Shown piece after piece: positions 35,436 to 46,472 of a stretch of 64,000 bases of DNA. The notes beneath the pieces are model-generated. The model did not search any database and was not told the origin of the DNA. It was given only the letters and a program-made list of their open reading frames with translations. The DNA is taken from contig MHHG01000057.1 of assembly GCA_001805965.1 (NCBI GenBank), positions 13,514 to 77,513 of the forward strand. The letters are read 5' to 3'. The stretch comes from Omnitrophica WOR_2 bacterium RIFOXYA2_FULL_38_17. Its GTDB lineage: Bacteria > Omnitrophota > Gorgyraeia > Zapsychrales > Zapsychraceae. The position numbers and the translations under genes were made by a program. The stretch's first letter is position 1; every line of letters starts with the position of its first letter.

Positions 35436-37967
35436 CTATTGTTTTGGGAGCAAATTATCTGTATATATCTCGCTTATTCCATAAGAACCCATAAATTGCT
35501 CTGCTTCAATTTCAGTATTTACCGTATGAACATATGTTGGAATATTCATTTCGGCTAATAGCTTAGGTAAGTCCGTTTTAGCTAAGTTCGGGGGCATCGT
35601 TACTGCAAAGGGTCCTTTAAATTCATTTACCCATTTCAATATATCATTTTTTGTACCTTTATATCTGTAAAGCGTCCAGATCACTCTGTTATATCCAAGC
35701 TTCTTGACAACAGAATAATTTTCAGGCTCATAGATCTGAGGAATAACCCTGTTTTCATAATCCTGCATTCTCTCTGATATTAGTTTTAAAGCTTGAATAT
35801 TATCGCCTTTAACATCAGTAATTAAAGTTGCAGATAAATTATTTTCAAGCCATTGTACCAGATCATCAAATGAAACACTCTTAAGATCAGAACTATCATC
35901 AAGCACCTCATTAAATTCTTTTAGTGAAGGCGGCATTTTATTCCCAACTATTTTTGCTTTTTGATAATATCCCTCAAAATCATGTACGCATACCAAATGA
36001 TTATCACTTGTAAATGAAAAATCGATTTCAAAGTACAAAAATCCATCTTTAAAATTTCTATCAATAGCTTTTAAACTATTCGTATATGTTCTATCATCTA
36101 TTGCCCCTCCAGCATGGGCCACACGTTGCACTTTAAAATTAGAGCCTAACTGTAATGCATCGCGTATCTCATGCGCACTTAATTTAATATTTTCCCTTAA
36201 TTTCCATTTTTTTAAATAATTTCCTCTTGTGCCTAATACGGCACAACAGCCTCTATCACCTAAATTATGGTCAATCTTATTCATTTTTGCACAATCATCT
36301 ATTAATAAAAAGTGACTTGTTATCTTGTCGTCTTCTAAAATATCAAACAAAGTTTTATTCCTTGGAAATCTGTTAAAGTTAAATATTAAGGTTGTTTTAA
36401 AGGCATCATCAAACCTAAGCAAAGCAGGGATGTTGAACTTCCTTTCATCTATCTGCACAACTCGCTCATGCAAATCTATTTTTATAAATTCATCGATCCT
36501 TGGAAATTCCCAAAAGGCTAAAGCATCCTTTCTCCATCCTTTTAAATTTTTATGGATCAGTTTTACTTCGTCATTTTTTACCTTTGTGTCCAGCAAATCC
36601 CTTCCCAATCCCACATCTCCTTTAAATCCTATAAAAGGAAGTACTGTCGGGCTAATATCCAAAGTTGACCCCAATCTATTTATCTCCTTTGAGTTCTTTA
36701 ACTGAGGATCAAAGATCATAAAAAGATTCCTTCTTTTCCCTAGATTCAATAGCTCATAAGCAGTATTCCTCATAGCAAGATGATCTGATTGCAAAACAAT
36801 TACTGTTTTTTCTGCATAAGGAGATATAGCAATTTTGTCAATGAATTCGGCAATCAAATATTCAGAACATGAAACCGCATCTAACATTTTGTTTGACCCG
36901 CTTTCAGATATTTTATTCTCACATCTTTGCGAAACATGTCCTACAGGTGCATGTGTACCCAATGTTAATATAAATATCCCGAAAGGCTTGTCTTTTTTTG
37001 ACTGATCAATGAAACTATCATATGCAATATCTAATAAAGAATCATCAAACAAACCCCAATTATTCAAATATGCCTTGTCGGGTAACCTGTCAAGCAATTC
37101 AGCATTACCATATACATCATCAAAATTATGCGTTTTAAAATATTTATCCTTGCCTGCAAACCTGATATCCGCTCCCCCGAAGAAAGAAAGACGGTATCCC
37201 TGATCATGGAGCAAATCTCCCAAGCAGACAGCCTTTTGTAAAAAAGTATCCATTCCTGACATTGCATTACCGTGAGATGTCGATATTAATGGCACCCCGC
37301 ATTGACTTGCGACTATGCCACCCATTGTATTGTGAGCATACTCTACCTGGACAATATTTGAAAAATCAATTCTTTTTGTCTTAATTTGTTTTATATATCT
37401 ATTTAAACCAGGAAAAATTGCCGGATCAAAATAGGTTCTTTCCATGCTTTCTGCATATATAACGATTAAATTCTTTTTCAGCTTGTCATTATGCTCAAGG
37501 TTAGGCTTCAAATAATGCTCACTAAAACTCTCAGAGCTTGTTTTTACAAAATATAGATTTTTTAGATCATGCACTGCAGGGTTCAATAAAATTGAAATAA
37601 ACTGGACAAAATATAGGAAGATCAATAAAGCCTTATTGCTGTTAATTGCGGTATCTTTTTTCTTTATAAAAACAATCAGCACAAATATTCCAATAGCTAT
37701 TATTGCAATAATTGAAAACCCTATGAGATTTGACAAATGTGCGAATCCTGAGCCATTAAAACCATATTTCAAATGAAATATAACAGACTCATCAATACCA
37801 TAGGAAGTAATTTCATCGGAGATAAAATAGAATAAGTTTAATAAAAGAGAGGCTACTGTTAAAAATAAAAGTATTAAAGTGTTAAATAAGCTTACTTTTC
37901 TTCTACGAAGAACAAATCCAAATATCAGAATAAAAACAAGAGATAAGTACAGATGTGGATTATTCAT
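35436..37967 (-). CDS. fusion of membrane-anchored LtaS/OpgB-like sulfatase-family phosphotransferase and C-terminal glycerophosphodiester phosphodiesterase (GDPD) domain
   Basis: N-terminal 5 TM helices, a sulfatase/alkaline-phosphatase-superfamily core, and a C-terminal GDPD signature (VAHAGG…NSLKAI…FEIDFSFTSDNHLVCVHD). Confidence 0.6.
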   Translation of the reverse strand: MNNPHLYLSLVFILIFGFVLRRRKVSLFNTLILLFLTVASLLLNLFYFISDEITSYGIDESVIFHLKYGFNGSGFAHLSNLIGFSIIAIIAIGIFVLIVFIKKKDTAINSNKALLIFLYFVQFISILLNPAVHDLKNLYFVKTSSESFSEHYLKPNLEHNDKLKKNLIVIYAESMERTYFDPAIFPGLNRYIKQIKTKRIDFSNIVQVEYAHNTMGGIVASQCGVPLISTSHGNAMSGMDTFLQKAVCLGDLLHDQGYRLSFFGGADIRFAGKDKYFKTHNFDDVYGNAELLDRLPDKAYLNNWGLFDDSLLDIAYDSFIDQSKKDKPFGIFILTLGTHAPVGHVSQRCENKISESGSNKMLDAVSCSEYLIAEFIDKIAISPYAEKTVIVLQSDHLAMRNTAYELLNLGKRRNLFMIFDPQLKNSKEINRLGSTLDISPTVLPFIGFKGDVGLGRDLLDTKVKNDEVKLIHKNLKGWRKDALAFWEFPRIDEFIKIDLHERVVQIDERKFNIPALLRFDDAFKTTLIFNFNRFPRNKTLFDILEDDKITSHFLLIDDCAKMNKIDHNLGDRGCCAVLGTRGNYLKKWKLRENIKLSAHEIRDALQLGSNFKVQRVAHAGGAIDDRTYTNSLKAIDRNFKDGFLYFEIDFSFTSDNHLVCVHDFEGYYQKAKIVGNKMPPSLKEFNEVLDDSSDLKSVSFDDLVQWLENNLSATLITDVKGDNIQALKLISERMQDYENRVIPQIYEPENYSVVKKLGYNRVIWTLYRYKGTKNDILKWVNEFKGPFAVTMPPNLAKTDLPKLLAEMNIPTYVHTVNTEIEAEQFMGSYGISEIYTDNLLPKQ

Positions 37968-38001
37968 TTAAAGTTCATTATCTTTTATAACATTGTATTT
38001 T

Positions 38002-38424
38002 TTAGTCATTTTTGTGCTCTTCAACGAACTTCATACATGCCTTTGCTATATCCTTGATGGATATCATTCCTATCAATTTATTATCATCAACTACAGGAAC
38101 ATGCCGGAAATTAAGCCCGCTCATCATATGATATACATCAAAAATTGATGTGCCAGAAGTAACCGTTGAAGGATGTATTGTCATAACCTCTTTCACATGA
38201 ACCTTTTCAAGATTCAAACTTTCAGGGACAACTCGCCTTAGAACATCCCTTTCAGTAAAAATACCGACGATTTCATCCTTATCATTACAAACAGCCATCG
38301 CGCCAATATTCCTGACAAACAGTTCTTTTATAGCCTCCATAATAGTGACCTCTTGCGATATCTTCCCCACCCTTTTTGCCATTATATCGCCAGCTGTTAA
38401 TGCTGATATTTTTTTTGCTAACAT
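38002..38424 (-). CDS. CBS domain-pair protein
   Basis: Two CBS motifs in 140 aa. Confidence 0.8.
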   Translation of the reverse strand: MLAKKISALTAGDIMAKRVGKISQEVTIMEAIKELFVRNIGAMAVCNDKDEIVGIFTERDVLRRVVPESLNLEKVHVKEVMTIHPSTVTSGTSIFDVYHMMSGLNFRHVPVVDDNKLIGMISIKDIAKACMKFVEEHKND

Positions 38425-38585
38425 TATCCCCCCCCTTGATTACATATTACCAAATTTTATTTCAACATAACAAACAATGCTAAATATTTCAGTTTTCTTT
38501 TCTTTGATTTACAATACATCGTAGCTATCACATAAATCAAGGATAATTAGCTTTTTTGTGCCGCAAGGAAACAAAATAATAAATA

Positions 38586-38627
38586 AAAAGGCCGCTCATT
38601 TAAATGACCGGCCTATTTATTCCGTTG
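38586..38627 (-). terminator. intrinsic terminator (GGCCGGUCAUUUAAAUGAGCGGCC + U-run) in the riboswitch-1 leader, just upstream of the CBS gene
   Basis: An 11-bp stem with one mismatch, then UUUUUAUUUAUUAUUUU on the minus strand. Confidence 0.6.
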
Positions 38628-38744
38628 GGGTCTTGCGGTGGAATTCCAGGGACTAACACAAACTTAATAAATAATTTTGCGCTAGTCCCTGGGGCAATAA
38701 CAGTCCGTCGCTCGGGGGCGGTTGGCAACGGTGCTATTGATCAT

Positions 38745-38795
38745 AATAAAAAAGACCTGTCCCTTATAAAAAGAGACAAGTCTTTTTCAGTAAAA
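38745..38795 (-). terminator. intrinsic terminator immediately 3' of riboswitch-1 aptamer (expression platform)
   Basis: GACUUGUCUC…GGGACAGGUC hairpin followed by UUUUUUAUUAU on the minus strand. An A-run on the other side makes it look bidirectional. Confidence 0.55.
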
Positions 38796-38814
38796 ATATC
38801 TACGCCTTTTTTTC

Positions 38815-38900
38815 GATTCGGCAACTGGCTATCCATTTCTTTGGACCCTTTAGCTTTGCGTCCCTGGGTTGCCCCAGGTTTGCCATTTTCGTCGTTATGC
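38815..38900 (-). promoter_or_regulatory. GEMM-I (c-di-GMP class I) riboswitch aptamer, copy 1
   Basis: Minus-strand RNA reads …AAAAUGGCAAACC-UGGGGCAACCCAGG-GACGCAAAGCUAAAGGGUCC…GGAUAGCCAGUUGCCGAA. P1 is GGCAAAC/GUUGCC. P2 is capped by a GCAA (GNRA) tetraloop. The GGGACGCAAAGC core is conserved. Confidence 0.7.
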
Positions 38901-38968
38901 CCCCTACTAGTTAAGTATATAACACATATAGTAAACTAGCAAATAAGGAGCGTTTATTCCTTTATAAA

Positions 38969-39868
38969 CTAACCACAATTGTAACAACTCTGCTCAAATT
39001 TCTCCCCGTTTGCCAGATACACTGTTAATTCCATGAATTCGCATGTTTTACTGTCTGAACATGCTGAACAATCAGTCTTAAGCCCAATATCAGCGCACCT
39101 TGCGCCTCCGGTGCTTGATTCACATCTATAGCATATACCATCAACATCCGGCAGCTCTTCAACCACACAATTGCCATCACATTCTGTACAATCTGAAAAG
39201 TTTAACAGATCAAAAACAGTGCAATCCTCTTGTCCTGCACTAACCAGCTCTTCAATGTCTTCATTAATCATTTTATAATTATCTGATATTTCGATAACAT
39301 CATCACCTTCATAATCCAGCTGATCTTCAGAATAATTCTCAGGCTCAATTTTTGAAATCAGCACAATTGTTTTGTCTTTTGCCTTGTCCTCATTAACATT
39401 TGTTTCAAATGTTAGTTCTTCGGGAATAGATTCAACATCTTTTTCATCAGATGTCTCTGTTACTGCCGGTATTTCTACACAAGAATAGCAGTCCTGACCA
39501 CCAGTCATTTTTTCAATTGCCAAACATTGAGCACCAGGAATAGATGTGCAGAATTCACACATATCCTTTGTAACAAGCCCTATATCCCCGCAAGTTTGGA
39601 TGATTTGCACCTGCACAACTTCTGCAACAGGTTCATTAACTGCTTTCTTAGTAATCTTTGCTTCTACTTGTTCAGGCTTAACTGGCACTTCTTCTTTAAA
39701 CAAATTTTCATATGTCTTTTCCGGCACCATAACATTAGAAACCTCCAGCTGTTTCTTTTGTTCATATTCTTCTATGGTTTTATTTGTCACAACCTTTTTC
39801 GAGCAGCCTACAATCGCTGCAGAGAATATGACCATTCCAACAACTGCAAAATATTTTATTTTATACAT
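38969..39868 (-). CDS. Cys-rich lipoprotein (secreted, many CxxC/CxC pairs)
   Basis: Lipobox AIVGCS. About 24 Cys, clustered in the C-terminal half (CYRCESSTGGARCADIGLKTDCSACSDSKTCEF…CYNCG). Confidence 0.5.
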   Translation of the reverse strand: MYKIKYFAVVGMVIFSAAIVGCSKKVVTNKTIEEYEQKKQLEVSNVMVPEKTYENLFKEEVPVKPEQVEAKITKKAVNEPVAEVVQVQIIQTCGDIGLVTKDMCEFCTSIPGAQCLAIEKMTGGQDCYSCVEIPAVTETSDEKDVESIPEELTFETNVNEDKAKDKTIVLISKIEPENYSEDQLDYEGDDVIEISDNYKMINEDIEELVSAGQEDCTVFDLLNFSDCTECDGNCVVEELPDVDGICYRCESSTGGARCADIGLKTDCSACSDSKTCEFMELTVYLANGEKFEQSCYNCG

Positions 39869-39880
39869 ATAGCACCTCTC

Positions 39881-41959
39881 TTACTTTTTGCTCAATTGAT
39901 CTATATTTTTATCAGCAATCATCTTTGGTACGCTGATAGTTATCGAGATATTGCCATCACTTAAGACTTCTTCAGACTCCACTTTAATAATACTTTCAAC
40001 TCCGTCTATATCAACATTATACAGCTCTGAAACTTCCTGCTGAATGCGTTTTAAGGCCATATTCTGCGTCATTTTTCTTTTTATCTCTTCAGTTGAACTC
40101 TTCAAATTTACGACCGGGAACACCCTGGTCATAAAAACTCTTTCTTCCTTTTCTTTCACATTTGGGTCAAAAGAGAACACTTTAATGCTATCTGCCATAT
40201 AATCCGAAACATAAATTTTACCATCATTACTTTCTATTGATGTTAGATTAGGAAAATAGCTTGGGCCCTTTCCGGCAGAACCAAACTCCATGACATATTT
40301 TCCTTTATCGTCGAGGATGTAAATCTTATTTGTTCCTTTATCTGCAATGTAAAGATATCCATTCTCATCTAGAGTAAAGTCAACCGGCTCTTTAAACTCC
40401 ACCTCATCGAGAACGCTGCCTATTACCCTAAGGACCTTTCCATCTTTATCGAATACCTGTATACGCCTATTCTTGTAATCAAGCACATACAATTGGTCCT
40501 TATCATCAAATTCAATATCTTTTGGCAAAAAGAAAGTACCTGGCTCTGCGCCTGATTCTCCGATAGTTTCTGTTAATCTGCCAAACGAGTTAAGATATAT
40601 TCCTTCCTCACTAAAAACCTGTATTCGATGATTCTTTGTGTCCGATACATAAATATAGCCGTCCTTGCTAACTGCAACACCTTGAGGGCTATTAAACTCA
40701 CTCGTATTATTCCCTTTTTTGCCAAAACTATATTGAGATGTCCCATCTTCATTTAAAAACTGTATACGGTTATTTCCTGTGTCGGCAATGATCATTTTCC
40801 CGTCATTATAAACATATATAGTCTTCGGGCCGTTCATGCCCAAAACATTCTCGTCTGCTTTTGCTATCAGTGATTTATTTTCTCCTTTTAGCAATATTTT
40901 CCCGTTAGTGTCAGAAAGCGAATACAAGCCTTTCTTTTTCACAAATCTTATATCAACTATATTTTCTCCAGCATATATGGATGAGTCATAATCCAAAACA
41001 GGTGTAATATATTGAACAGGATGCAGTGATGTTTTGTTGCTACCGCTAACCTGCATCATCTGCACTCTCTTATTTCTAGCATCCGCTATCAAGATCTTAT
41101 CCTTAGATGCGGCGGTGATATTTTCAGGCAGATCAAATTGGCCACGGCCCTCTCCGCGGGACCCGAATGAGAACAAAGCCTTTCCATCCTGATCTAGCTT
41201 AACGATCTTATTTTTATTGCTCTCTATAATGTAAATATCCCCTCGCTCATCAACATCCAATGCAACAGCATAATATAGAGGATTATATCCATTCTCGACA
41301 TTCGTTATATCTATGGCATCATCTGAACCTTGCGGATATTTCACGATCCTTCCACTTTCATTAAAAAGCAAGTACATGCTTTGTTCTTTATCAAAAACTA
41401 TGTCCTTAGGCGTTTCTTCAATTTGCTTTTCACTTAAAAACGCTCCATGAGGGCTAAACTTCAATATTTTATTAGTTTTATCATCAACGACATATATATA
41501 TCCAAGCATATCAATTGCAACATTTGACGGAGACTTAAATTGCCCGGGAACAGAACCTTCATTTCCAAGCTCATACAGAACTTCTCCGCTGGGCCTGAAA
41601 ACCTGCACTCTGTTATTACCTGTATCAGCTACTACAACATCACCCTCCCTTGTTAATGCTATTGTTTTAGGCTTATACATTTGGCCCAACTGAGACCCTT
41701 TTTCTCCGAAAGCCACTTTAAGAACTCCTTCACTGGTAAAAACAGAGATCTTCGCAGTACTTTCATCTAATATATAAACATCCCCTGAAGATGAAACTGC
41801 AATATCAACCGGCTTCTCTATTCCAGATTTTAACTCTCTTATAAAGCTAACCTTTTCCTCACAATTCCCTTTAGAGCTTACAAGAACAAATGTCACTATT
41901 AGAATAGTTAAAATACCGATTTTTGAGGTTTTGATCTGATTCACATGATACCTTTTCAT
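39881..41959 (-). CDS. secreted NHL-repeat beta-propeller protein (about 12 NHL repeats)
   Basis: Signal peptide. Repeated NHL signatures (GQFKSPSNVAID…YVVD; NNRVQVF; NKRVQMM; NNRIQFL; NHRIQVF; NRRIQVF). Confidence 0.8.
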   Translation of the reverse strand: MKRYHVNQIKTSKIGILTILIVTFVLVSSKGNCEEKVSFIRELKSGIEKPVDIAVSSSGDVYILDESTAKISVFTSEGVLKVAFGEKGSQLGQMYKPKTIALTREGDVVVADTGNNRVQVFRPSGEVLYELGNEGSVPGQFKSPSNVAIDMLGYIYVVDDKTNKILKFSPHGAFLSEKQIEETPKDIVFDKEQSMYLLFNESGRIVKYPQGSDDAIDITNVENGYNPLYYAVALDVDERGDIYIIESNKNKIVKLDQDGKALFSFGSRGEGRGQFDLPENITAASKDKILIADARNKRVQMMQVSGSNKTSLHPVQYITPVLDYDSSIYAGENIVDIRFVKKKGLYSLSDTNGKILLKGENKSLIAKADENVLGMNGPKTIYVYNDGKMIIADTGNNRIQFLNEDGTSQYSFGKKGNNTSEFNSPQGVAVSKDGYIYVSDTKNHRIQVFSEEGIYLNSFGRLTETIGESGAEPGTFFLPKDIEFDDKDQLYVLDYKNRRIQVFDKDGKVLRVIGSVLDEVEFKEPVDFTLDENGYLYIADKGTNKIYILDDKGKYVMEFGSAGKGPSYFPNLTSIESNDGKIYVSDYMADSIKVFSFDPNVKEKEERVFMTRVFPVVNLKSSTEEIKRKMTQNMALKRIQQEVSELYNVDIDGVESIIKVESEEVLSDGNISITISVPKMIADKNIDQLSKK

Positions 41960-41996
41960 TTTTTTCTCCTCTCTACAATTAATCCCATAAAAAAAG

Positions 41997-42035
41997 GCCT
42001 ACCCTTTACAAAAAAGGATAGGCCTTTCTTTTTTA
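41997..42035 (-). terminator. intrinsic terminator between riboswitch-2 aptamer and NHL gene (expression platform)
   Basis: GGCCUAUCC…GGGUAGGCC hairpin followed by UUUUUUUAU, then the RBS GAGGAG and the ATG of the NHL gene. Confidence 0.6.
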
Positions 42036-42059
42036 TTATATGAACTACACCATTATTTC

Positions 42060-42145
42060 TTTTCGGCAACTGGCTATCCATGTCTCAGGACCCTTTAGCT
42101 TTGCGTCCCCGGGTTACCCCGAGTTTGCCTTTATCGTTTATGCCC
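42060..42145 (-). promoter_or_regulatory. GEMM-I (c-di-GMP class I) riboswitch aptamer, copy 2
   Basis: Minus-strand RNA reads …CGAUAAAGGCAAAC-UCGGGGUAACCCGGG-GACGCAAAGCUAAAGGGUCCUGAGACAUGGAUAGCCAGUUGCCGAA. P2 has a GUAA tetraloop. Near-identical to copy 1 in the conserved cores. Confidence 0.75.
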
Positions 42146-42347
42146 CCACTTGCACAAACAAAAAAAAGAGGCTAATTCTTTTTTAAGAATCCGCCCCTCT
42201 TTTTCTCAAGTATAGAACGTAAAAAACAAAAATGCAAATTTCTTTCAAAAATATTCTTAAAACACATAACGTTCATTGAACTTTAAGATAAAGCCCCTTA
42301 TATAAATAAGGGGCCTTATCTTGGATCATGATTGTTATACAAAATTC

Positions 42348-42752
42348 CTACTTAGAAACCCAGCTGCCATCTTCTAATTGTATTTTTTCTCCAGCCTCAG
42401 CATTTTCTCTCTGTGTTTGAGCAAAAACCTTTTCTATAGTTCCCATAGCCTCAGTTAGTCCGTTTTGCACAGCAATGGTCCTATAAATAACCTTCCTATC
42501 AATATTCTCGGCAGTTACTATACTTTTAACTTCTTCTGTTGCCGATAAAGCTTCAACATATCCCTTATTATTCTCTCCTATTTTCCCCTCGCTCTTAAGT
42601 GAGCTAAGAGCATCATAACGGTCGCGCCTGCCTTCTAAGGCAGATTGAACTTCTGGCGTCATTTCTTTTATGCTGTATTTGCTTTGAGCTAGTGCCTGCC
42701 CGACAGACAAGGTGATCAAACATGCTAACACTAAAATAATAATTTTCTTCAT
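42348..42752 (-). CDS. ydbL: YdbL-like periplasmic protein (DUF1318)
   Basis: Signal peptide. Conserved DUF1318-like core (RRDRYDALSSLKSEGKIGENNKGYVE). Third gene of a ydbH-ynbE-ydbL-ordered trio. Confidence 0.55.
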   Translation of the reverse strand: MKKIIILVLACLITLSVGQALAQSKYSIKEMTPEVQSALEGRRDRYDALSSLKSEGKIGENNKGYVEALSATEEVKSIVTAENIDRKVIYRTIAVQNGLTEAMGTIEKVFAQTQRENAEAGEKIQLEDGSWVSK

Positions 42753-42765
42753 CTATATATCCTCC

Positions 42766-42987
42766 TTATTTTTTAACAGGTAAAGCTTCTTTAGGCTTCT
42801 TTCCACTAACATAATCTTCAATGTCATTAGCCGTATTTTGCAAACCCTTAACATCAACAGTTATATGCGCATTGATCGTAATTGGCCTGTTTGGATCACC
42901 TACGGCCTTAACTGTACAACCGGCAAAACAAATAGCCAGCAATACCCACAAGATTCTTTGTTTATAAATATAATACATACGCTTCAT
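42766..42987 (-). CDS. ynbE: YnbE-like small lipoprotein (DUF1375)
   Basis: 73 aa with lipobox FAGC. RPITINAHITVDVKG resembles E. coli YnbE EPITINMNVKIEHEI. Confidence 0.6.
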   Translation of the reverse strand: MKRMYYIYKQRILWVLLAICFAGCTVKAVGDPNRPITINAHITVDVKGLQNTANDIEDYVSGKKPKEALPVKK

Positions 42988-42993
42988 CCTTTC

Positions 42994-43992
42994 TTAAGAC
43001 TTTTTAAAAGAATATTTTAATAAATTTCTTATCCCTCCTTCTATATTAAAATCAACGGTTACATTAACATCCAAATTCATTTCTTTACTCTGCAATAAGA
43101 TATTAGAACTAAGGCTTTGATCATTTTCATTATAAACACGCACTTGGCCTTTATCCACCGCAAACAGCTCCCCTCTTTTTATCGCATTAATCAGCTTGTC
43201 AGTCTTCGCTTGATCCGGTATGTAAGCCATTAATGCTGCCAATAAAACTGCATTCAGCTCAGAACCCTGATTCATGTTAAAATCACACTCAATATTCTCG
43301 ATGCCACCCGCCAGACCATTTAAAAATATATTTCCAGATACTTTTCCTTTTACATTTGAAAGAACAGGAGGATAAATATGTTCAAGCATTGCAGAATTTA
43401 AACCTTCAAGCTGTAAATTTATTTTAAAATCCGGCTTATTCAAATAAACATCTGCATTGCCTTTGACAAAACCATCACAAGTTTCAAGATTTATATCAGA
43501 AAGCTCTATTTTTTCTTGGCTTATATTAATCTTAGACGTTGTGTCCTTTGCTATTACCCCTTGTACATCTATTCTCGATACCTTTAAACTTCCTTTAAAA
43601 TTATAACCTTGTTCTTGTTCTAATGTAATATCTGCATCTTCAATGTTTGACCCTTCCGATTTTAAATCCATGCCATTTAAATCGATTATTGAACCAAAGG
43701 TCTTTTCAGAGAACAATTTATACAAATTCACAACCCTAAATTCGTCTATATCAATACCATACAAAACATTATCGGAAACAAGATCCATTTCTATTTTCTT
43801 GATTGTCATCATGCCCAAAAAGCTGAATTTCTGTTGTGATACTTTGAAACTCTTTAAACTGAACCCAGAATCTGGTTGATTCGCGATAAAAGATATCATT
43901 GCAACAGTTGCTTGAGGCTTATTCAGGCCCCAATAAACTGCACCTGCAAACAATAGCAATATTAATAAAAGCCAAATAAATAATTTTTTCAT
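42994..43992 (-). CDS. short YdbH/AsmA-like periplasmic protein
   Basis: N-terminal TM anchor followed by a beta-rich soluble region. Called from its position upstream of the ynbE/ydbL homologs, as in Enterobacteria. 332 aa against about 880 aa for E. coli YdbH. Confidence 0.4.
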   Translation of the reverse strand: MKKLFIWLLLILLLFAGAVYWGLNKPQATVAMISFIANQPDSGFSLKSFKVSQQKFSFLGMMTIKKIEMDLVSDNVLYGIDIDEFRVVNLYKLFSEKTFGSIIDLNGMDLKSEGSNIEDADITLEQEQGYNFKGSLKVSRIDVQGVIAKDTTSKINISQEKIELSDINLETCDGFVKGNADVYLNKPDFKINLQLEGLNSAMLEHIYPPVLSNVKGKVSGNIFLNGLAGGIENIECDFNMNQGSELNAVLLAALMAYIPDQAKTDKLINAIKRGELFAVDKGQVRVYNENDQSLSSNILLQSKEMNLDVNVTVDFNIEGGIRNLLKYSFKKS

Positions 43993-44046
43993 TATGTGAA
44001 ATTTATATCATTTCAACAAAATTTAATAGCAAGCCTGTCTTAAATT

Positions 44047-44703
44047 CTAAGTTTCTTCAGTATCTATCATCCTCTTCGCTCCAAAAACCAACGTAAGCAA
44101 AAAACAAACAATTCCAAGAATATAAAAGAAACCACTATAACGTTCAATCAATAATCCTTTTTCTGTCTTATAAAAATCAGCTTTTTCCTTTTCATACTGT
44201 TCTAGCTCTTTCATCAGCGGCATTCTTTGCTTCCATAGTTCTTTTCCTTCAACATCATCCACAAATCCACCCCGTTCTGCTGCAACCTTCACTTTTTCCT
44301 CCTCTAGAGAAAGCCTTTCTTTTTCTATGGCCCTGCTCTCAGCCAAATAATCTGCATACTTGCCAACTGGACGCGCATTCCCCCAAAACCCTTTTCTTAT
44401 CACCTCATTAGGACCTATTGATTCATAAAGGCGATCATTATCCTCACTCCTTATCTTAAGGTCTTCCTCTTTCTTTTCAATTGAAAGATACCAAGCTCGG
44501 CCATCTTTATCCTTTCCCAATAAAATATCGTATAACTTCCTGTCGATTTTCTCAATTTTACCTTGTAAAACACCTATATTGCTAAATATGGGTGGCGCTA
44601 AGACTTTTTCTGACAAAAAGAATGATATTGGGCACATCAGCATTATTATAATTTGAAACAAACAACCGATCTTAATTCTTTTTTTATTTTGTTTTTTATT
44701 CAT
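44047..44703 (-). CDS. bitopic membrane protein (N- and C-terminal TM, central coiled coil, PVGKY motif); paralog of 45445..46095
   Basis: Same architecture and shared motifs (RPVGKYADY vs APVGKYKKV; KELWKQRMP vs KALWAQRLP) with the 216-aa protein. Confidence 0.4.
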   Translation of the reverse strand: MNKKQNKKRIKIGCLFQIIIMLMCPISFFLSEKVLAPPIFSNIGVLQGKIEKIDRKLYDILLGKDKDGRAWYLSIEKKEEDLKIRSEDNDRLYESIGPNEVIRKGFWGNARPVGKYADYLAESRAIEKERLSLEEEKVKVAAERGGFVDDVEGKELWKQRMPLMKELEQYEKEKADFYKTEKGLLIERYSGFFYILGIVCFLLTLVFGAKRMIDTEET

Positions 44704-44762
44704 AATTAAATCCAGGTATATAGCCAGTTTTGGCTAATTAAAGAACTAGTTCTTACATAATA

Positions 44763-45350
44763 TTATAAATTACAAAAAGGGCAGCGTGTTCGATATTGTT
44801 CATAGTTCAATCCGCATGAACCACAAGCCTTCATTTCTTCGATCTCTTTTTTTTGACTGCCAAATGATTTTTTACCGTATGCTCCGGGATACGCCCTTTG
44901 AACTTCTACCATACAATCCGGGCACATACCATAACCGCCGGATGGGTCAGTTAACGGTAACCTGACATAACATCTGTCACAAAACATCTTTGCGCATTTA
45001 GGACAAAAATAAAAGTCATTGCCGCCCATAAGCACCAAAGATTCACTAGTTGTAGATTTATTGCATGATTCACAACTTGCAGCCATTATCATCTCAGGAG
45101 TAACTCTTAGAACAGATTTTCTAGCATCATATATTATCTCTACATCATGGCAATATGGGCTGTTCAAATAACCATTAACTTCCTCTTCCATATGGCAAGT
45201 GCCAAAATTACTATAATCCCTAGCCGTTGATGAACTCTTATATCTCACAATAACTACATAGCCATCCCTCTTAGCCATCTCATTAGCGATCTCAGGATCC
45301 GTTTTTCCAGGATATTTCTCTCTTAGGTACTCTATGCCGATAGAGCTCAT
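44763..45350 (-). CDS. cytoplasmic multi-zinc-ribbon protein
   Basis: At least three CxxC…CxxC pairs (CPKCAKMFCDRC; CPDC; CGSCG…CPFC). Confidence 0.45.
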   Translation of the reverse strand: MSSIGIEYLREKYPGKTDPEIANEMAKRDGYVVIVRYKSSSTARDYSNFGTCHMEEEVNGYLNSPYCHDVEIIYDARKSVLRVTPEMIMAASCESCNKSTTSESLVLMGGNDFYFCPKCAKMFCDRCYVRLPLTDPSGGYGMCPDCMVEVQRAYPGAYGKKSFGSQKKEIEEMKACGSCGLNYEQYRTRCPFCNL

Positions 45351-45444
45351 AACAATCCCCTTTCAGCTAAACTTTGACACAAATAAAATACTTTCAAGAT
45401 TTGTTTCTTCAATTTAATATCTTTGGTTTATTTTTCAATAATGA

Positions 45445-46095
45445 TCAGTCCGTTATACCAGCAAAACCGGTCATAGCACCTAAAATACCTAACACTCCTA
45501 AGATAATAAAAAAGCCACTAATAAAATTATTTAATCTTCCCTTTGGGGATTTATTATATTCCTCTATTCGTCCCTCATATTCATCAATATCCTTCACAAA
45601 AGGTAGTCTTTGAGCCCAAAGAGCTTTAACTTCTTCATTGTCAACAAGCGGCCCTCTTTCTTTAACAATGCGATTCTTTTCACTTTGCCATTTAATACGA
45701 TCTTTGGCTATTTGCTCCCTTAATTTAACCACTTTCTTATATTTTCCTACGGGTGCCAATGAACCAGAACCTAATCCTTTTTTAATGATCTCCCCTTCAG
45801 GAATTGAATCGTAAAGAATATCTGCTTGCTGTGTCTTCCAATTCAGATCAAAATCCTCTTTTTTTATCGCTGCATATAGGTCCGCCTTCTCAATATCAAC
45901 TCTCTCAAGAACTTCATATAATTTTTCATATATTTCTGAAATTTTAGAAATTTGAGGGCTAATGTTTCCAAATGAAGGACGCTGAAACTTAGGAAAGATA
46001 TTAAATGATATAATAACTGTAACAATAGAGATTATAATGACTAAACATCCAAACTTTTTATTTTTTTGTCTTTTGTTTTTAATTATTGTTCCCAA
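45445..46095 (-). CDS. bitopic membrane protein, paralog of 44047..44703; first gene downstream of riboswitch-like element 3
   Basis: N-terminal TM, coiled coil, PVGKY motif, C-terminal TM. RBS AAGGAG. Confidence 0.4.
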   Translation of the reverse strand: MGTIIKNKRQKNKKFGCLVIIISIVTVIISFNIFPKFQRPSFGNISPQISKISEIYEKLYEVLERVDIEKADLYAAIKKEDFDLNWKTQQADILYDSIPEGEIIKKGLGSGSLAPVGKYKKVVKLREQIAKDRIKWQSEKNRIVKERGPLVDNEEVKALWAQRLPFVKDIDEYEGRIEEYNKSPKGRLNNFISGFFIILGVLGILGAMTGFAGITD

Positions 46096-46246
46096 AGCAT
46101 TCTCCTTTTATACATAATAATTTCAAAAGCTATAACCCCTTCACTGGTCATTAACAATTGAAATTGAAACTTCAATCAGTATATTCTATATATTCACAAG
46201 TATATTAGCAATCGCTATTTATGTACTTTGGTCAAGATCAAATGGC

Positions 46247-46286
46247 AAAAAAAATACCCCTAGGTCCCTAGAGGTTATTTTTTTTA
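46247..46286 (-). terminator. intrinsic (bidirectional-looking) terminator between element 3 and the 216-aa gene
   Basis: A8, hairpin ACCCCUAGG/CCUAGAGGU, then T8. On the minus strand the hairpin is followed by U8. Confidence 0.5.
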
Positions 46287-46290
46287 AATT

Positions 46291-46472
46291 AAGCCGATAA
46301 AGATGGGATCTGTGTCCCACCGCACTTCGGCAACTCAGCCACCATATCGCCCGTCAACCGCGCTCATTATCTTTATTTGCCCCATAACTTCAGTGGGCCT
46401 TCCCGGTCTTAAACGACTTCAGGTCTGTAGTTTTGTGCCCTCGGGTTTCCCGGAGTTTACCTTTATCGGCTT
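46291..46472 (-). promoter_or_regulatory. divergent GEMM-like riboswitch element, copy 3 (expanded P3, altered core)
   Basis: Enclosed by a 12-bp helix AAGCCGAUAAAG/CUUUAUCGGCUU. It contains CGAUAAAGGUAAAC, a GAAA-capped hairpin, GGGCACAAAAC in place of GGGACGCAAAGC, and the 3' GCUGAGUUGCCGAA. Confidence 0.4.

Follow-up and report, generated by a model that had tools for sequence, protein, structure and literature searches.

The closest described counterpart of the element considered here is Cd1, a riboswitch for cyclic diguanylate (c-di-GMP) in the leader of the flagellar operon of Clostridioides difficile. Cd1 is a validated OFF switch in which the terminator can form alongside the ligand-bound aptamer, with an antiterminator as their competitor in the free state (PMC9262584). 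Our literature search found no paper linking Omnitrophota, NHL proteins and c-di-GMP riboswitches. Here, we consider a 64-kb stretch of contig MHHG01000057.1 from Omnitrophica WOR_2 bacterium RIFOXYA2_FULL_38_17 (hereafter the window; G+C content 36.7%), in which Rfam places three aptamers of the c-di-GMP-I clan: copy 1 at 38893-38816, copy 2 at 42138-42061 and copy 3 at 46471-46326. The subject is copy 2, which precedes genes for an NHL-repeat protein and a Cys-repeat lipoprotein; all features of its unit lie on the minus strand, and coordinates are those of the window. Copy 2 is probably a GEMM-I (class I c-di-GMP) riboswitch that is served by its own promoter and turns the two-gene NHL/lipoprotein operon OFF by transcription termination.

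In the mechanism that we propose, the 3´ half of the aptamer would be free at low c-di-GMP, and its strand GGAUAGCC would pair with GGCCUAUCC, the 5´ arm of the downstream terminator, to make an antiterminator that lets RNA polymerase read into the NHL operon. At high c-di-GMP, the ligand would lock the three-helix junction and hold GGAUAGCC within helix P3, such that the terminator with its U7 run could form and transcription would end about 30 nucleotides (nt) before the start codon.

The aptamer itself is well supported. With Rfam model RF03167, copy 2 scores 64.8 bits, above the gathering score of 59, at an E-value of 4.9e-13 for the whole 64-kb window and of 3.8e-15 locally, and a second model of the clan (CL00126) is also above its own threshold but is masked by clan competition. 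Helix P2 is capped by GUAA, a GNRA-type loop, and P3 is compact, with a tip (CCUGAG...CAUGG) that bears a loose likeness to the 11-nt tetraloop receptor and is not conserved among relatives. Across 31 related aptamers, all six P2 pairs have changed on both sides, and 96.3% of cells are paired, compared with 23-43% when the partners are slid as a control. The P3 pairs were fixed by the pattern used for retrieval and are therefore uninformative for covariation.

The terminator is strong. Its arms GGCCUAUCC (42024-42016) and GGGUAGGCC (42004-41996) enclose an 11-nt loop (42015-42005), and together with an A/U extension it folds with -26.8 kcal/mol (z -6.5), a stability reached by 0 of 200 shuffles. 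A simple terminator scan skipped both this hairpin and a second one, H2, under its loop-length rule (the loop of the riboswitch terminator exceeds 8 nt), and direct folding recovered both. The original prediction had placed an aptamer at 42060-42145, a terminator with a U7 run about 20 nt beyond it, and a ribosome-binding site and ATG right after that. The aptamer is real within slightly different bounds, and the terminator, the U7 run and the start region follow in the order described; the linker between aptamer and terminator, A/U-rich, measures 36 nt rather than 20, and the two elements do not overlap. Within this leader, GGAUAGCC is the best duplex site for the terminator arm and can form eight pairs with GGCCUAUCC around one bulged C.

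More weight is carried by the relatives. These were collected by scanning one genome per species for the signature GACGCAAAGC-N4-GGGTCC-N4-12-GGATAGCC, which returned 115 stretches spread over many Omnitrophota metagenome-assembled genomes (MAGs), Acholeplasmatales, Anaeroplasmataceae, Erysipelotrichaceae, Butyrivibrio, Geobacter and Planctomycetota bins; individual loci are given L numbers below. The sequence CCUAU(U)C is kept in the 5´ arm of the terminator in all NHL-linked leaders and in 11 leaders that precede other genes in Omnitrophota and related members of the Planctomycetes-Verrucomicrobia-Chlamydiae (PVC) group, while linker length (14-36 nt), linker sequence and loops all vary. Complementarity of this arm to GGAUAGCC is kept in 27 related leaders. 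Of 128 aptamers of this subtype, 17 are followed by the motif CTATCC within 130 nt (shuffles would give 1.5), and none of 126 is preceded by it. When each of the 27 leaders was folded to minimum energy up to the base ahead of the terminator 3´ arm, the motif paired with the aptamer in 25 and specifically with GGAUAGCC in 22. Compared with copy 2, L002 has changed the bulged base from C to U and shows wobble-compatible changes in the stem, and in L002 and L070 the terminator pairing is maintained through G-U wobbles.

Some of the folding results weigh against the proposed switch. The duplex energies of single leaders are weakly better than those of shuffles (p about 0.06-0.2), which is why we rely on conservation across leaders; most of the 27 leaders belong to a single phylum, however, and they are thus not fully independent themselves. 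In the nascent minimum-energy fold of copy 2 (-28.4 kcal/mol), the partners of the terminator arm are the AAAGG and GCC segments of the aptamer and not GGAUAGCC, and the GGAUAGCC:CUAUCC register is also unused in the corresponding fold of L070. In favour of the proposal, the canonical antiterminator, when enforced in copy 2, is far more stable (-25.3 kcal/mol) than the ligand-free consensus aptamer (-14.1 kcal/mol). Since either alternative pairing disrupts the binding pocket, the switch logic is unchanged, and the exact register of the antiterminator in copy 2 is presumably that of its relatives. The OFF-type arrangement of the original prediction thus agrees with the structural elements and with their conservation across relatives, with the proviso that the nascent minimum-energy fold of copy 2 does not show the canonical antiterminator.

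These observations also bear on a competing explanation, namely that copy 2 is not an OFF switch at all but an ON switch, a translational switch, or a constitutive terminator accompanied by a relic aptamer. The missing canonical antiterminator in the nascent fold speaks for this alternative, as does the finding that, once the leader is complete, the terminator fold wins every time on thermodynamic grounds (-49.7 versus -32.5 kcal/mol); on the proposed model, kinetics must then decide, as is usual. The related riboswitch Bc1 has, moreover, been reported to be locked OFF in vivo (PMC11218506). Each form of this alternative nevertheless meets a specific difficulty. An ON switch is hard to reconcile with a terminator that lies clear of the aptamer, because a bound aptamer cannot then prevent it, and ON designs built on the same strand look different: in the Bacillota loci L019 and L117 (Subdoligranulum / Eubacterium bins), GGCUAUCC and a U-run come right after the aptamer, 13 nt past GGAUAGCC, which reads as an ON-type design with the aptamer strand itself as terminator arm. 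As the ribosome-binding site GAGAGGAG is unpaired in the leader fold, no translational component is seen. A relic would hardly have kept aptamer, arm complementarity and gene linkage over 41-92% protein identity. We find this alternative very unlikely, and repression by termination remains the natural reading of the arm complementarity and the comparative evidence.

Which ligand is sensed depends on a few positions in the junction. Three bases of copy 2, G10 (42129), A37 (42102) and C73 (42066), are equivalent in the Rfam alignment to the ligand contacts G20, A47 and C92 of Vc2. The junction G and the diagnostic A are 27 nt apart, as they are in Vc2 (G20/A47) and in Bc1 (G11/A38) (PMC11218506). 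With the canonical G/A/C contact triad in place, c-di-GMP is the likely ligand of copy 2. The name of the best-scoring Rfam model points elsewhere: RF03167 is the c-di-GMP-I-GGC variant, and it outscores the other models of the clan for copy 2, copy 1 and every NHL-linked relative. In the conserved junction, its consensus differs from that of RF01051 at one position (GACGC-G-AA versus GACGC-A-AA). In line with the model consensus, we take the name to stand for G20/G47/C92. To our knowledge, no ligand has been established for the GGC variant, which adds to the case against c-di-GMP. As for the identity of copy 2 with this variant, we rejected it at the defining position, where copy 2 has A and the RF03167 consensus has G.

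A rival reading, suggested by the Rfam assignment, is that copy 2 is a specificity variant for a ligand other than c-di-GMP, for example another cyclic dinucleotide. The model score and the compact P3, with no obvious 11-nt tetraloop receptor, speak for such a variant. Copies 1 and 2 and each of the 16 NHL-linked aptamers, however, have A at the diagnostic position, and the G version occurs in 0 of the 102 aptamers in the loci collected, a count to be read with the fact that the retrieval pattern itself requires A. Cyclic GMP-AMP (cGAMP) as ligand is opposed by the base equivalent to G20, in AAAGGCAAAC, which is G, such that the A20 signature of cGAMP sensing (GEMM-Ib) is absent. The simplest explanation for the higher score of RF03167 is the compact P3 (GGGUC...GAUAGCC) that it shares with copy 2, and we think a variant ligand very unlikely. 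As a separate observation, many compact-P3 aptamers from Bacilli, Acholeplasmatales and Erysipelotrichaceae (L015, L022, L031, L041, L053 and others) have A for G at the G20-equivalent (AAAAGCAAA), and this A is the reported signature of cGAMP-sensing variants.

The c-di-GMP riboswitch of the proposed model appears to have a dedicated promoter, for which there is good comparative support. TTGCAT-17-TATACT is a single match in the window, TTGC(A/T)T-17-TATACT is found 5´ of homologous riboswitches in all three leader groups, and copy 1 is preceded by a similar TTGCTA-17-TATACT. The original prediction of this promoter and of a terminator for the upstream ydbL-like gene is borne out by these findings and by hairpin T1, which is likely to be the terminator of the upstream (DUF1318) operon; T1 has a better U-run in L070 and is absent from L002. 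The further statement that the leader is an independent transcription unit holds for the conserved promoter but has to be qualified by a hairpin that had gone unmentioned, H2, which lies between promoter and aptamer. Transcription is predicted to start about 7 nt after TATACT, near 42202, such that H2, approximately 5-45 nt past the start site, would form the very beginning of the RNA.

If efficient, H2 would end transcripts ahead of the aptamer, a further point that counts against the proposed switch, and no promoter was seen, on reading by eye, in the 22 nt between H2 and aptamer. The hairpin is restricted to the window, L002 and L070, and no other copy was found within the window. It looks inserted relative to copy 1 and the other leader groups, where TATACT and aptamer are 18-30 nt apart. 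It could be a second terminator that insulates the unit from the upstream operon (in L002, T1 is lacking), an attenuator, or a 5´ stabilising hairpin. That H2 is the main control point in this clade, as an attenuator or insulator, with most transcripts ending before the aptamer or with the unit dependent on processing or read-through, fits a 20-bp hairpin with a U8 run that is kept in three loci, but it is an explanation that we consider very unlikely, because copy 1 and all other NHL-linked leaders retain the same promoter without H2, the three loci are close relatives whose conservation says little, and a hairpin so near the start of an mRNA might just as well stabilise it.

Table 1. Features of the copy 2 unit, in the order of transcription (coordinates of the window).
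Feature	Position	Strand	Description
Hairpin T1	42322-42285	minus	directly after stop codon of DUF1318 (ydbL-like) gene; -25.7 kcal/mol, z -6.3
Sigma-70-like promoter (putative)	42237-42209	minus	TTGCAT 42237-42232, 17-nt spacer, TATACT 42214-42209
Hairpin H2	42205-42160	minus	20-bp stem flanked by A-run and U8; -21.6 kcal/mol, z -4.9
c-di-GMP-I-clan aptamer, copy 2	42138-42061	minus	78 nt; RF03167, 64.8 bits
Switching strand GGAUAGCC	42079-42072	minus	3´ strand of upper P3; complementary to terminator 5´ arm
Intrinsic terminator	42024-41996; U7 at 41995-41989	minus	5´ arm GGCCUAUCC, 3´ arm GGGUAGGCC
Ribosome-binding site GAGAGGAG	41973-41966	minus	6 nt ahead of ATG (41959)
NHL-repeat protein	41959-39881	minus	692 amino acids; Pfam NHL, E 3.5e-47
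Cys-repeat lipoprotein	39868-38969	minus	299 amino acids; lipobox IVGC, Cys22; begins 12 nt past NHL stop

The first gene of the operon encodes the NHL protein, for which the AlphaFold model (mean predicted local distance difference test score, pLDDT, 88.9) has an N-terminal hydrophobic helix (residues 4-28), two six-bladed propellers (approximately 36-305 and 322-597) and a conserved C-terminal alpha/beta domain (607-683). The protein had been announced as a 12-bladed propeller of about 690 residues; size and repeat type are right, and the model resolves the blades into two propellers plus a further domain. By the model, the N-terminal helix would be a signal or anchor, and signal peptides of the typical kind are present in NHL homologues. 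Among solved structures, the best matches are to the NHL domains of Thin, TRIM71, TRIM2 and Brat, which are eukaryotic and uninformative for function. Because the partner gene begins so shortly after the NHL stop codon, the two genes should be co-transcribed. The partner starts with MYKIKYFAVVGMVIFSAAIVGC, in which a hydrophobic core is followed by the lipobox I-V-G-C22 (read by eye), and export of both proteins is thus predicted from sequence. The length of 299 residues and the lipoprotein assignment were as foreseen, but the Cys residues number 19 rather than about 24. Of these, 18 fall in three six-Cys modules of approximately 40 residues with the pattern C-x-D-[IL]-G-L...C-x2-C...C...C-[YF]-x-C. 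Pfam gave no match up to E 10 for the Cys-rich partner or for the upstream uncharacterised open reading frames (ORFs). Relatives of the Cys-rich protein are few: five in one protein search, and nine cluster representatives at E 0.001 among 1.84 billion. Six-Cys repeat lipoprotein genes stand beside NHL genes in the window (38969-39868) and in L003 (5118-6938 and 6919-7785), where the gene that follows the NHL gene encodes a lipoprotein of 606 residues with 71 Cys and about 12 copies of the module.

The NHL protein has thousands of homologues. A protein of 'Omnitrophica WOR_2 bacterium RIFOXYB2_FULL_38' is 100% identical to it, 'GWF2_38_59' has a protein that is 100% identical to the partner, and the exact NHL gene is also present on a 62-kb Joint Genome Institute (JGI) metagenome contig. 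The surroundings of seven NHL homologues were looked up, with a record for all but one. An aptamer lies directly 5´ of an NHL homologue (41-92% identity) in 11 loci (L002, L003, L006, L012, L016, L020, L034, L040, L044, L067 and L070), nine of which are Omnitrophota MAGs or near-identical metagenome contigs; L044 was binned as Planctomycetales and L002 is a contig. In five of these (L003, L016, L020, L034, L044), tandem complete riboswitches precede the NHL gene, and the second unit has its own terminator where it was read (L003, L016, L034, L044). No aptamer was found upstream of the NHL homologues in Scalinduaceae (L004), in L005 and in a group linked to radical-SAM genes (L007-L009), from which it follows that the riboswitch link is not universal in the protein family. 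In L006 (5525-7231), L012 and L040, the NHL gene is followed by one for an MshEN/T2SS-E (PilB-like) ATPase, and in L006 T2SS-F comes next; MshEN is a c-di-GMP-binding domain. The same riboswitch design also occurs in other Omnitrophota or PVC bins before type IV pilin-like genes (L062, L082, L092, L093) and before response regulators (L017, L085, L102, L105), which suggests a common envelope and pilus regulon expressed at low c-di-GMP.

The genes around copy 2 are those of an ordinary chromosomal region (trp genes, aroA, rho, prfA, polA, glgA). The gene directly upstream, DUF1318 (ydbL-like; 134 amino acids, 42752-42348, minus strand), is preceded by a 73-residue ORF (42766-42987, minus strand) that has no Pfam match, an arrangement resembling E. 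coli ynbE-ydbL. The three riboswitches, spread over approximately 8 kb, head successive units on the same strand (35436-46471, minus). The copy 3 unit has six ORFs, mostly without assigned function, of which DUF1318 is the last; the copy 2 unit consists of the NHL and Cys-lipoprotein genes; and the copy 1 unit encodes a CBS protein and an 843-residue sulfatase/GDPD protein. As nothing but a weak hairpin lies between the end of the Cys-lipoprotein gene and the promoter of copy 1, the units may be chained by read-through. Copy 3 (46471-46245 including its platform, minus strand) is of the classical long-P3 type with a GAAA loop and a CCUGAAG/UAUGG receptor. Downstream of it, CUUUAUCGGCUUA is complementary to the 5´ end, UAAGCCGAUAAAG, and a separate terminator with U8 follows, so that its expression platform appears to be unlike those of copies 1 and 2. 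Between the terminator of copy 1 and the CBS-domain gene lies a relatively G+C-rich and very stable structure of about 160 nt (38745-38585, minus strand; -65.4 kcal/mol, z -7.8), with a terminator of its own at the end. A permissive Rfam scan of this structure returned nothing credible; the structure may represent a small RNA or, under the control of copy 1, a second leader element.

The finding has several implications. Omnitrophota, known almost only from metagenomes, appear to use c-di-GMP riboswitches with a stereotyped terminator design, and the placement of these riboswitches before recurring envelope- and pilus-related genes provides a sequence-based handle on the c-di-GMP regulon of the phylum. 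For the NHL/Cys-lipoprotein pair, the conserved riboswitch offers a testable regulatory context; the six-Cys repeat is found in only a handful of protein clusters. There is also a warning for annotation, in that Rfam clan competition names the whole compact-P3 subtype 'GGC' despite its canonical A. A bolder idea, which we put forward tentatively and consider rather doubtful as a whole, is that the NHL double propeller and the Cys-repeat lipoprotein form a conserved, undescribed envelope module of Omnitrophota that belongs to a c-di-GMP-repressed regulon, together with type IV pilin-like proteins and response regulators, gated by CCUAUC-terminator riboswitches. If so, the riboswitches would mark genes turned on at low c-di-GMP in a largely uncultured and possibly host-attached phylum, and the repeat of approximately 40 residues with six Cys would be a new domain family.

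In comparison with described systems, copy 2 has most in common with Cd1: the aptamer class is the same, the terminator is separate and downstream, and the antiterminator would be made from the 3´ part of the aptamer and the 5´ strand of the terminator. It differs in coming from Omnitrophota and not from Bacillota, in its compact P3, in the GUAA loop on P2 and in the use of the P3 3´ strand GGAUAGCC as switching strand; the genes that it precedes encode an NHL propeller and a Cys-repeat lipoprotein and are not flagellar, and its architecture has been read from sequence alone. With RF01051 (GEMM-I, Vc2 type) it shares the three-helix junction, the junction strands AAAGGCAAAC and GACGCAAAGC and the G/A/C contact bases, but its P3 is much shorter and lacks a clear 11-nt tetraloop receptor, and RF03167 scores higher. 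RF03167, in turn, has the compact P3 in common with copy 2 and is set apart by the consensus G at the A47 position. Tandem c-di-GMP-I riboswitches such as Bc3-5 of Bacillus thuringiensis (surveyed in PMC9481103) are paralleled by the five NHL-linked loci with riboswitches in series, and by the clustering of three riboswitches within 8 kb in the window. Copy 2 is, however, a single unit, and the three copies of the window head successive operons rather than one gene. In conclusion, copy 2 is best seen as an instance of a known mechanism, a Cd1-like OFF platform, and what is new is its cargo, the annotation caveat that comes with its subtype, and the phylogenetic and genetic context in which it is found.

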